Assembly: GCA_041497675.1 (NCBI GenBank) | Contig: JBGQGY010000080.1 | Span: forward strand, 1-18,022 | Reading direction: 5' to 3' | From: a bacterium | GTDB lineage: Bacteria > Sysuimicrobiota > Sysuimicrobiia > Sysuimicrobiales > Humicultoraceae | Length of the DNA stretch: 18,022 nucleotides | Shown: positions 14,040-16,299 of the stretch, piece by piece | Layout of the letters: each line of letters starts with the position of its first letter | Position numbering within the stretch: the first letter of the stretch is position 1 | The notes under the pieces: generated by a model | The model's database searches: none | What the model was told of the DNA's origin: nothing | Seen by the model: only the letters and a program-made list of their open reading frames with translations | Translations under genes and position numbers: made by a program

Positions 14040-14202
14040 GAGAGAAAGGTAGGGACGTATGGTTATACGCGGCTCGACCGATCCCTCTGGCGTGCTCTCC
14101 GCGATTTGGGCGGCGGAGGATGGGTTCGTGGTTGAGCCGAACCACCCGTGTATCGTGTTAGCGAACGCGATTCGACCGATCCAGATCGATCACGTGAGCT
14201 TC

Positions 14203-14224
14203 GAACTCGGTCCGGACCGAGTTC
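14203..14224. repeat. Perfect 22-bp palindrome, solo copy
   Basis: GAACTCGGTCC|GGACCGAGTTC; same core as 15059 and 16145. Confidence 0.95.
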
Positions 14225-14362
14225 CCGAGACCTTGCGTCCAAGTTGACAGCGCCGCTCGGACCCGATGACAAGAGGATGTTCATCCGGACTTCCCGAAAA
14301 TGCGGACGCTGGGTAGTGGCAAGAACCGTGGGTTAGGTGCTCATTCACCGGGGGGTTGAGTC

Positions 14363-14917
14363 ATGAGACGGATTGGGATTATCGCGGTGCTGCTGATTGC
14401 GGGCGTGCTGCTGTTCATGCAAACAGTTCTAGGACAGGGCATGAAGGTCGATCAGAAGATCCGCAGCGCGATGAGTGCGGCGCCTTCGTCGATCGCGAAG
14501 AACGCCACGATCATGGATTATCCTGCCAAGGAGGGCCAGCAGCCGCCCCTCCTGCGCAAGGGGACGAATGCGTGGACCTGTTTCCCGGATGATCCCAGCT
14601 CGCCGGGGAACGACCCCATGTGCCTGGACAAGTCGTGGATGGTGTGGTTGCAAGGGTATCTGACCAAGGCGGCGCCGAAGGTCACCGCGCCGGGGATCGC
14701 CTACATGCTCCAGGGTGGCAGCGATACCGGCAACACCGATCCCTTCGCGCCACCGCCTAAGTCCCCGAAGCAGTGGCTCTCGTCGCCTCCCCACGTCATG
14801 CTGGTCGTTCCCGGCAAGCTCGATCCGGCAATGTTTACCGCCGAACACCACTCGGGGGGACCCTGGATCATGTGGGCCGGCACCCCGTATGAGCACTTGA
14901 TGGTGCCCGTAAAGTAA
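14363..14917 (+). CDS. Secreted hypothetical protein (184 aa)
   Basis: Signal peptide; SAMSAAP, LRKGTNAWTCFPD, PMCLD, PGIAYMLQGG, PPHVM, PWIMWAGTPYEHLMVP. Confidence 0.85.
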   Translation: MRRIGIIAVLLIAGVLLFMQTVLGQGMKVDQKIRSAMSAAPSSIAKNATIMDYPAKEGQQPPLLRKGTNAWTCFPDDPSSPGNDPMCLDKSWMVWLQGYLTKAAPKVTAPGIAYMLQGGSDTGNTDPFAPPPKSPKQWLSSPPHVMLVVPGKLDPAMFTAEHHSGGPWIMWAGTPYEHLMVPVK

Positions 14918-14932
14918 GGAACGTCAGACAGG

Positions 14933-14967
14933 GCCCCGCTCAAACGAGCGGGGCTTTTTCTTTTTTT
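14933..14967 (+). terminator. Rho-independent terminator
   Basis: GCCCCGCTC-AAAC-GAGCGGGGC 9-bp stem followed by TTTTTCTTTTTTT. Confidence 0.9.
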
Positions 14968-15058
14968 GGCAAGACTCACGGGCCGTCCCGCATAATGCCT
15001 CGAGCCAGGCCGATGAATGGTATGGGAACGCGTTGTTCGACGCCAAGCGGTGTCCCGC

Positions 15059-15080
15059 CAACTCGGTCCGGACCGAGTTG
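15059..15080. repeat. Perfect 22-bp palindrome upstream of the HNH gene
   Basis: CAACTCGGTCC|GGACCGAGTTG, 20 bp before the ATG. Confidence 0.95.
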
Positions 15081-15100
15081 CGCCAGACTGAGAGGGGACG

Positions 15101-16201
15101 ATGGATCGAGACGCGCTCTCGGCGCCGGCAGAACTCTCCAACAGCGAGCTGCTCGCGCGGGTCGAGGGTCTCGCCCAGAACGAGCGAGAAGCGACAGCGT
15201 CCCTTATTGTCCACCTTGCGGAACTCGACGTGCGGCGTCTGTATCTCGGCGAGGGCTGCTCGTCGCTCTTCACCTACTGCACGCATGTCCTCCACTTCTC
15301 AGAGCACGCCGCGTACGGGCGCATCGAGGCCGCCAGGACGGGCCGGCGGTTTCCCGCCGTGCTCGAGATGCTCGAGGATGGATCGATCAACCTGACGACG
15401 GTGTGCATGTTGACGGCGCACCTGACACACGACAATCACCGCGAGCTCCTTGCGGCAGCCACACACAAGAGCAAGCGACAGGTCGAGGAACTCGTCGCAC
15501 GGCTGCGCCCCAGGCCGGCTGTCCCGGCCACGGTCCGTAAGCTGCCGGCCACGAGCCCGACTCCTGCCTCCCCCCCGCTGGCGGATGTCGCGGAGGCCGG
15601 TGCGCATTTGCTGCTGCCGGTTGCGCCTGTCGCGCCGGCGGCTACGCCCCCTGCGGTCGTCGCCCCGCTGGCGCCCGAGCGCTATAGGGTGCAGTTCACG
15701 GCGAGCGCCGAGACCTGCGACAAGCTGCGGCTCGCGCAGGACCTGTTGCGTCATCAGATTCCTGACGGCGATCCGGCGAAGATCTTCGATCGAGCCTTGA
15801 CCGCGCTCCTCGGGGATCTCGCCCGGCAGAAACTCGCCGCGACCGACCGGCCGCGCGGAAGCCGGGGCAGCGCGCCTGGTTCGCGTCACGTCCCGGCCGA
15901 CGTCAGGCGCGCCGTGTGGCTCCGCGATGGCGGGCGATGCGCCTTTGTCGCGGCCAACGGCCGTCGCTGCGCGGCGCGGGGCTTCGTCGAGTTCCATCAC
16001 GTTACGCCTCATGCGGCAGGCGGTGAGTCCACGGCAGCCAACATCCAGTTGCGATGCCGCGGGCACAACGGCTATGAAGCCGAGCTATTCTTCGGTCCGC
16101 GCCAACCGGCTGCTGTGAGAGAGCCGCGCACGCCCTACCAGGCTACTCGGTCCGGACCGAGTCGATATGCTTGTCTCCGTCGAACTCGGGAACCCGGCTG
16201 A
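15101..16201 (+). CDS. DUF222-like / HNH endonuclease domain protein
   Basis: GAGGGG RBS; helical N-domain (HLAELD.RRLY...GCSSLF.YC), Pro/Ala linker, RHVPA.VRRAVW.RDGGRC..C..EFHHV.P...GG....N.QLRCRGHN. Confidence 0.88.
   Translation: MDRDALSAPAELSNSELLARVEGLAQNEREATASLIVHLAELDVRRLYLGEGCSSLFTYCTHVLHFSEHAAYGRIEAARTGRRFPAVLEMLEDGSINLTTVCMLTAHLTHDNHRELLAAATHKSKRQVEELVARLRPRPAVPATVRKLPATSPTPASPPLADVAEAGAHLLLPVAPVAPAATPPAVVAPLAPERYRVQFTASAETCDKLRLAQDLLRHQIPDGDPAKIFDRALTALLGDLARQKLAATDRPRGSRGSAPGSRHVPADVRRAVWLRDGGRCAFVAANGRRCAARGFVEFHHVTPHAAGGESTAANIQLRCRGHNGYEAELFFGPRQPAAVREPRTPYQATRSGPSRYACLRRTREPG
16145..16162. repeat. Perfect 18-bp palindrome within the 3' tail of the HNH gene
   Basis: ACTCGGTCC|GGACCGAGT. 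Confidence 0.95.
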
Positions 16202-16221
16202 GCGCGCCCTGACGCGCAGCG

Positions 16222-16251
16222 TTGACCTCGACGGCGGGCATCGCCGACAAT
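16222..16251 (+). promoter_or_regulatory. Possible sigma70-type promoter
   Basis: TTGACC-18 nt-GACAAT, about 50 bp upstream of the probable start at 16300. Confidence 0.3.
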
Positions 16252-16299
16252 GACAGCGCAGAATCGGGCGCGAAGGGAGTCGCATCGGAGGCGGAGCGA

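Follow-up and report, generated by a model that had tools for sequence, protein, structure and literature searches.

What are identical perfect palindromes doing around a small gene for a putative HNH nuclease? The question is raised by an 18,022-nucleotide stretch of an uncultured sediment bacterium of the Sysuimicrobiota (contig JBGQGY010000080.1, assembly GCA_041497675.1), whose whole length we call the window, and for which a preliminary description had proposed that the HNH protein recognises or mobilises its own palindromic ends, as an HNH analogue of the REP/RAYT system. Our analysis indicates that the palindrome, termed P, is on balance probably the site of the protein encoded between its copies, and that it bounds a selfish cassette. 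The observed and computed grounds are that P is associated with the gene family, coincides with the element boundaries and is extremely and symmetrically conserved, together with the fold of the protein and a dimer model. This palindrome-bounded HNH cassette looks like an undescribed kind of selfish DNA; the full-text literature searched, mostly present as titles and abstracts and with subscription journals outside its coverage, held no description of such cassettes. Throughout, P denotes the 20-mer AACTCGGTCCGGACCGAGTT with the core 18-mer ACTCGGTCCGGACCGAGT, and the own genome (G000) is the one to which the window belongs. The central features of the window are the following.

14204-14223, no strand: third exact P (core 14205-14222), in a divergent intergenic region, at the left edge of a genome-specific segment.
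15059-15080, no strand: 5' P, palindromic without mismatch over 22 bp (core 15061-15078) and ending 20 bp short of the ATG at 15101.
15101-16201, forward strand: open reading frame (ORF) of 366 aa, with a helical N-domain, a Pro/Ala linker, an HNH domain and an unconserved tail.
16145-16162, no strand: 3' P, an exact 18-mer with T and C as flanking bases instead of A and T.

Exact matching bore out the 22-bp palindrome before the ATG and the second copy after the HNH domain, both reported in the preliminary description, and added the third copy, which it had missed. Three exact occurrences of the core in the window compare with a mean of 0.01 expected, and 0 of 200 dinucleotide-preserving shuffles contained three. 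Because of this excess, and because P pairs also bracket homologues in relatives, the association of P with the gene in the window goes beyond chance. The genome-wide count of the 18-mer, which had been proposed as a check, found eight exact copies in the own assembly (3.97 Mb, 272 contigs, 66% G+C), and allowing up to 4 substitutions in the 20-mer brought in just four extra sites, two of which (C45:15478 and C115:1769) keep the stem and have a changed centre.

We then compared the DNA of 41 related genomes, among which all positive ones belong to one taxonomic family (f1). Exact P is present in 12 of the 41, at 1-13 copies per genome, and the HNH family in 17; 11 of the 12 P-bearing genomes also carry the HNH gene, and the twelfth (G014) holds relics only, composed of P, a portion of the leader and codons 1-30. 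Carriers of variant palindromes are among the six genomes that have the HNH gene and lack exact P. P pairs bracket the gene in G012 (C74 and C155), G008:C101, G010:C117 and G018:C3, and of the 58 exact P copies that the relatives contain, 33 have an HNH match no more than 650 bp away. The family reaches up to 16 matches per genome in these relatives, many of them at contig ends, as repeats do. When copies are aligned together with their flanks, similarity begins at the 5' P and ends at the 3' P. Across 16 full elements the mean pairwise identity in 20-column windows is 0.91 at the 5' P and 0.81 at the 3' P, compared with 0.84 in the best coding window, 0.15-0.47 in the linker, 0.25-0.29 in the flanks and 0.26 beyond the 3' P. 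P is the best-conserved 20 bases of the element despite the divergence of the copies, which within one genome are just 64-90% identical in DNA. The simplest account is that the encoded protein reads P, since an almost invariant symmetric 20-mer sits at the exact borders of a fast-diverging gene.

The same ends recur in other phyla. Homologues with 37-60% identity were found in metagenome-assembled genomes labelled Acidobacteriota/Vicinamibacterales, Eisenbacteria, Myxococcota and others, and the subfamily also occurs in Sysuimicrobiota/'Armatimonadota'. Many of the Acidobacteriota homologues, at 50-60% protein identity, end in exactly the same P. Elements with non-canonical palindromes carry matching ends in 4/4 cases in which both ends were found: AACTCGTTCCGGAACGAGTT stands at both ends of the Eisenbacteria element L111 and of the elements L039 and L033 (in L033 with one extra mismatch), and CTTTCCCCGGGGAAAG at both ends of the L120 element. 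In the other variants (AACTAGGTCCGGACCTAGTT, AACTCGTCCCGGGACGAGTT and AACTCCGTCCGGACGGAGTT) both arms change together and the CCGG centre is kept, and in a quick protein tree the variants follow the protein clades. The flanks of homologues, another check suggested at the outset, thus show P at both ends in other genera and phyla, and because P marks the ends of a gene family in several phyla it is probably the site recognised by the protein. Metagenome contigs, a data set independent of the genome set, were scanned for the exact 20-mer and yielded at least 79 exact-P loci on 76 contigs. At 29 of the 79 listed loci (27 of the 76 contigs) a family homologue lies within 1.6 kb, with P at its 5' end, in its linker or at its 3' end.

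Several P sites of the own genome lie 10-22 bp upstream of start codons, and others at gene 3' ends. A perfect palindrome in the former position would fit the site of a host transcription factor, e.g., the SOS repressor, with the HNH gene as a member of its regulon, an explanation that we hold to be highly improbable. The two lexA paralogues (G000:C38:4580-4771 and G000:C33:17151-17336) and recA (C24:15260) are preceded by boxes of the GAAC-N4-GTTC type, not by P, which rules out P as a LexA/SOS operator. The genes beside P have unrelated functions (TypA, a hydrolase, a short-chain dehydrogenase/reductase (SDR), a FAD oxidase, methyltransferases, a kinase-like and a PEMT-like protein), which speaks against P as the mark of a regulon. 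In addition, some P copies sit at gene 3' ends, inside the HNH ORF or in arrays, and identity at all 18 positions is rare for operators. An integron attC site was rejected as well: attC sites measure at least ~57 bp, for which 20 bp is too short, and Pfam found no recombinase among the 17 window ORFs.

The protein itself has parts that suit a reader of P. Against Pfam, the window protein gives a sub-threshold HNH match (E 0.002, 18.6 bits with a cut-off of 21.4) and none to DUF222; among 52 aligned family members taken from the fetched loci, Pfam HNH is matched in 48 and DUF222 (PF02720) in 3, with a best E of 6.5e-5. Residues C280, C290, H300, C319, H322 and N323 (window numbering) are invariant in this alignment, as in an HNH zinc-finger nuclease of the beta-beta-alpha-metal type. 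The earlier label 'DUF222-like/HNH' accordingly keeps its HNH half, on fold, invariant residues and the sub-threshold Pfam match, and as a whole is partly right for the window protein. NCBIfam returned nothing real for the window protein, the guided_IscB model reaching 12.5 bits with a cut-off of 175 over the HNH part alone. The family is large, with 4,408 cluster representatives at E <= 1e-30 and 13,273 at E <= 1e-10 among 1.84 billion, and eight close homologues bear the source name 'hypothetical protein' or none.

An AlphaFold model of the window protein (pLDDT 81.4, pTM 0.69) divides into an all-helical domain (residues 27-138; 15179-15514), a disordered Pro/Ala-rich linker, and a helical middle part plus the HNH domain (residues 256-335; 15866-16105). 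The HNH domain matches the folds of GVE2 HNH, McrA and the Gme nicking enzyme (Z 6.8-7.2). For the N-domain, the best matches in VIA-align, run without the Foldseek pre-filter, are ParB-parS (6s6h; Z 7.3, rmsd 8.3, 110 aligned), the KorB-operator complexes (8qa8, Z 7.2, rmsd 3.6, 97 aligned; 1r71, Z 6.7, 3.5, 97) and Spo0J (1vz0; Z 6.3, rmsd 3.1, 91 aligned), all in the range of Z below ~13 in which the tool warns that a helical fold may reflect a common arrangement. Foldseek alone was weak for this domain (E 0.29 or weaker). The homodimer model scored 0.84 and the best control 0.00, a score that expresses the model's own confidence and was computed from an author-made alignment; that mark was attained by 20 of 30 proteins whose solved structures are pairs and by 1 of 23 whose solved structures are single chains. 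The dimer runs agree in at least 41% of contacts, with a partner pLDDT of at least 69, and the modelled symmetric interface is formed by helix 14-45 and residues 193-240. These models suggest that a ParB/KorB-like domain in a symmetric dimer would suit the reading of a palindrome. At its other end, the ORF contains the 3' P within its tail, past the HNH motif, and throughout the family it always continues across the 3' P to a stop in the flanking DNA, the frame differing among copies; since all three frames are used, the tail is not selected as protein.

An extra P also occurs inside the Pro/Ala linker, around residue ~157-185, in several lineages and in metagenome contigs (L020:1965-1984, L029:2247-2266, L028:2158-2177 and others), where it is in frame and reads TRSGPS.

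The most likely explanation both for the constancy of P and for the origin of cassettes, solos, relics and arrays is that the nuclease breaks DNA at P and the breaks are repaired from a template, with the chemistry of this scheme inferred. The encoded protein would act as a symmetric dimer whose N-terminal ParB/KorB-like domain reads the two half-sites of P and whose HNH domains nick or cut at or near its central CCGG, and binding at the 5' P would probably also control expression of the gene itself. Breaks at P would be repaired from other P-bearing DNA, so that every P is kept identical, and repair may occasionally copy or delete the DNA between two P copies, which would leave solo P, terminal relics and P arrays. 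The idea of an element-encoded nuclease that promotes retention of its element by cutting and templated repair comes from TnpB/IscB, as put forward in the accessible part of 10.1101/2023.03.14.532601.

A number of observations weigh against P as the protein's own site at the ends of a selfish cassette. One group concerns the distribution of P: 25 of the 58 exact copies in relatives have no HNH match nearby, 50 of the 79 listed metagenome loci have no homologue nearby (many of these contigs are short), and at L114 the 5' end and the linker carry different P variants. The HNH gene is single-copy in the own genome. The N-domain Z scores in the uncertain range and the self-assessed dimer score belong on the same side, and binding, cleavage and any movement or conversion are steps that we infer. 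The copies of P away from the gene would fit an independent REP-like dispersed palindrome, spread or kept by some other (host) factor, that gathers around HNH genes or beside which such genes land. Arrays and mixtures of variants point the same way: in L227:1590-1678, three or more P copies are arrayed in tandem with a period of ~31 bp and 11-nt spacers (GGAACGACGGC, GGAACGAGGGT), directly after a gene's stop codon and on into the contig end, and P stands beside other P variants in L222, L241, L242, L251 and L283. We nevertheless regard such independence as quite unlikely. Among the 41 genomes, exact P was found in no family other than the gene-bearing one, and 11 of the 12 genomes with P have the gene; variants of P match at both element ends and agree with the protein tree. 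Several of the 'solos' are what remains of cassettes. Among the metagenome solos, L262 and L264 are cassette leaders without the ORF, and L210 and L261 have a left flank like the 3' end of a cassette, as does the C1 solo of the own genome. Finally, a search for PF01797 (Y1/RAYT) found no such gene in the own genome (98.6% complete), with a control search positive in 6 of 14 reference genomes.

The second group of opposing observations concerns movement. The absence of an evident transposase and of a target duplication, both stated in the preliminary description, stands: Pfam found no transposase and no integrase/recombinase among the 17 window ORFs scanned, and the 16 full elements share no consistent target duplication or direct repeat outside P. 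The comparison of filled and empty loci that it recommended gave no clean pair among the compared loci of relatives. G002 carries the cassette at the same locus as the window, with homology starting at window 14909. The G001 copy lies at another locus whose flanks match contig C16 of the own genome, and C16 ~40229-40290 is the empty counterpart of this filled site, with 62 bp replaced and not cleanly interrupted. What the G000 and G001 copies have in common begins ~85 bp to the left of the 5' P and ends ~105 bp to the right of the 3' P (window 16265), and in the genus of the window (g1) the segment shared between species extends ~85-150 bp past the 5' P and ~105 bp past the 3' P. The 'empty' site G024:C100 is without a 2.2-kb block of G018:C3 that comprises the element and a broken SDR gene, G018:C80 has a different interval of ~3.1 kb where G010:C87 has the element, and the sites orthologous to the own solo P in G001, G002 and G011 are too diverged or rearranged to read. 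The copies are old (64-90% DNA identity) and some are orthologous between species: at the locus of the G018:C67 element, G024 carries an ortholog and G010:C70 a decayed relic from which the ORF and the 3' P are deleted. These elements are old residents, because their flanks are 74-80% identical. The window stretch is present in 20 public metagenome runs from sediments or hot springs; in four of them, the contigs span the filled form across both P and contain no P-to-P skip and no circle junction, with the limit that contigs cannot show rare forms, and the predicted excision-junction pattern had 0 exact matches in metagenome contigs.

The age of the elements, their partial orthology across species and the lack of any transposition signature among the loci compared would be natural for a resident, non-mobile nuclease gene, domesticated or addictive, for which P is an operator or insulator only. 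Its protein would repress via P like KorB, the 5' P shutting the gene off and the 3' P blocking read-through, and the nuclease would act elsewhere, for example on foreign or damaged DNA. The resemblance of the N-domain to the KorB/ParB operator binders fits this too, as does the position of the window P between an upstream non-coding segment and the ribosome-binding site. We think a purely resident gene unlikely, as it leaves unexplained the solo P copies by unrelated genes, the tandem P arrays and the P copies in linkers, as well as the number of matches, which reaches 16 in a genome with many of them at contig ends, and as paralogues in different contexts share nothing beyond P.

The proposal of the preliminary description is therefore borne out in part. 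Recognition by the protein of its own palindromic ends is backed by the association of palindrome and family, the boundaries and the covarying variants; its mobilisation is not, given the outcome for clean filled/empty pairs, duplications and junctions in the comparisons above. The analogy with REP/RAYT likewise holds in that P is dispersed, alone and in arrays, with no Y1/RAYT gene found, and falls short in mobilisation itself. A stronger version is a tentative possibility: P and the ParB-like/HNH protein would constitute a mobile system of a new class, driven by a nuclease and equivalent to REP/RAYT with an HNH enzyme, in which the dimer cuts P and repair or ligation between P sites spreads P and moves, deletes or captures the DNA between them, such as the 184-aa gene between P(14205) and P(15059). 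This gene and the other features around the cassette are listed here.

14363-14917, forward strand: orphan gene of 184 aa with a signal-peptide-like N-terminus, between P(14205) and the cassette; no Pfam family.
14930-14957, forward strand: terminator-like hairpin with a T-run, at the left edge of the segment common with the G002 copy.
14967-15058, forward strand: upstream non-coding segment, common to the G001 and G002 copies, which travels with the gene in the genus.
16163-16265, forward strand: downstream tail common with the G001 copy, containing a promoter-like TTGACC-18-GACAAT at 16222-16251.

The 184-aa gene was found in one of the 41 genomes, the own genome alone. Homology with G002 stops ~24 bp left of P(14205), and window 14181-14908, which holds P(14205) and the 184-aa gene, is replaced in G002 by a different 2.4-kb insert similar to the own contig C184. 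The 184-aa gene may be DNA acquired next to P, and is at most a candidate part of the element. On the right, the promoter-like motif faces the next, unrelated gene in both G000 and G001, in the window a PTPase-like gene that starts after ~16250. As the motif lies in the travelling tail directly before the next gene, the cassette may drive its downstream neighbour.

The segment 14967-15058 resembles the middle of a ~230-bp leader present in other genera. In these standard copies, leaders contain a conserved (A)CTTGACA(A/G)GT box ~45-65 bp after the 5' P (alignment A2, columns 83-93) and the motif GCCATGATATAcATAGGCtATGG at the start codon (A2 columns 268-295), an extended -10-like TGnTATAnA located 6-7 nt before the ATG, which suggests a leaderless mRNA. 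The window copy has neither the box nor the -10-like start motif, and instead carries the Shine-Dalgarno-like GAGAGGGGA between the 5' P and the ATG. A guide or structured RNA in the ~230-bp leader was rejected, as the leader matches no Rfam family and RNAalifold on 19 leaders gave just the P hairpin and a 4-bp stem.

Among known systems, the nearest described family is the REP13E12 or '13E12 repeat' of DUF222-HNH genes in Mycobacterium tuberculosis and other Actinomycetota, a dispersed multi-copy repeat of ~1.3-1.4 kb. Both have a single ORF with a helical N-domain and a C-terminal HNH in a unit of ~1.1-1.4 kb, and both are multi-copy and diverged, here within the genomes of relatives. In contrast to REP13E12, the present subfamily is shorter, lies mostly below the reach of the DUF222 model and occurs in other phyla; its ends are a 20-bp perfect palindrome conserved across phyla, mycobacterial ends being outside this comparison. 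DUF222-HNH genes of the REP13E12 kind are very common and have been known as repeats for decades. In its accessible part, a 2026 preprint (PMC13061034) describes the REP13E12 regions as hotspots of gene conversion that 'lack defined biological function', and the DIVE paper (PMC10589994), as far as its accessible text goes, merely lists REP13E12 among repeats. If the nuclease-driven P system is real, it would give a mechanism for these large unexplained DUF222-HNH/REP13E12-type families, and would add a system, mobile or self-maintaining, whose core enzyme is an HNH nuclease in place of a transposase or recombinase, and in which a compact nuclease reads a 20-bp site through protein alone. Its ends are sharp and testable: one 20-bp palindrome, conserved across phyla more than the protein, provides a concrete protein-site pair.

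With REP/RAYT (REPtrons/REPINs) the cassette shares a single gene flanked by a palindrome that is also dispersed, alone and clustered, and a gene that is single-copy in the own genome. REPs are present in tens to hundreds of imperfect copies per genome, whereas P is a perfect, almost invariant 20-mer with 1-13 exact copies per genome; moreover, the enzyme is an HNH nuclease with a ParB/KorB-like domain and no Y1 HUH transposase, and the gene is multi-copy in relatives. Like IS200/IS605, the cassette is a small element with hairpin-forming ends and without the usual terminal inverted repeats. Unlike IS200/IS605 and TnpB/IscB elements, it has no TnpA, and its ends are two identical perfect palindromes instead of different subterminal imperfect hairpins; unlike IscB/HEARO (OMEGA), it has no RuvC domain and no omega-RNA, the leader being without an Rfam family or conserved fold. 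KorB, ParB and Spo0J bind short palindromes (the operator OB, parS) as dimers, and among the structures compared with residues 27-138 their helix-turn-helix domains rank highest (Z 6.3-7.3, in the tool's uncertain range, with 91-110 aligned). The sequence identity to them is just 10-16%, and the cassette protein differs in having no ParB N-terminal CTPase domain and in its fusion to a nuclease. Finally, the cassette resembles the free-standing HNH homing endonuclease genes of phages and introns as a selfish HNH gene. The spread of homing endonuclease genes is thought to need cutting at a specific site and repair from the donor copy; here, in contrast, intact copies of the presumed site flank the gene and occur at other places in the genome, and the compared loci include no cleavable empty allele.

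Some loci show further features beside P. The Rfam scan beside P at 38 loci found no family but tRNAs, and no intron, so that homing of a group II intron to P found no confirmation at these loci; a tRNA gene lies ~70-130 bp from P in three unrelated loci (L018 ~2887-2959, L158:644-715 and L264:138-211). A solo P with ~25 bp of one flank (TCCTGCAAACTTCCCTCAAAG) is kept across two genera with rearranged surroundings, in G000:C92:9564 (L187:1264), G001:C26:447 and G006:C13 (L157:510). At least three extra symmetric pairs beyond the 20 bp are present in 6 of 41 instances, compared with 1.4 +/- 1.2 in shuffles (maximum 7), an excess driven by few loci, among them L001 and L003 (32-38 bp). In L001:1494-1525 and L003:1491-1528 (G003:C12 and G020:C190), the solo P is contained in perfect palindromes of 32 and 38 bp with similar outer arms (GAACAGA / CCGAACACA), followed by TTCGGTATCC, and these two loci may represent a longer hairpin element built around P.

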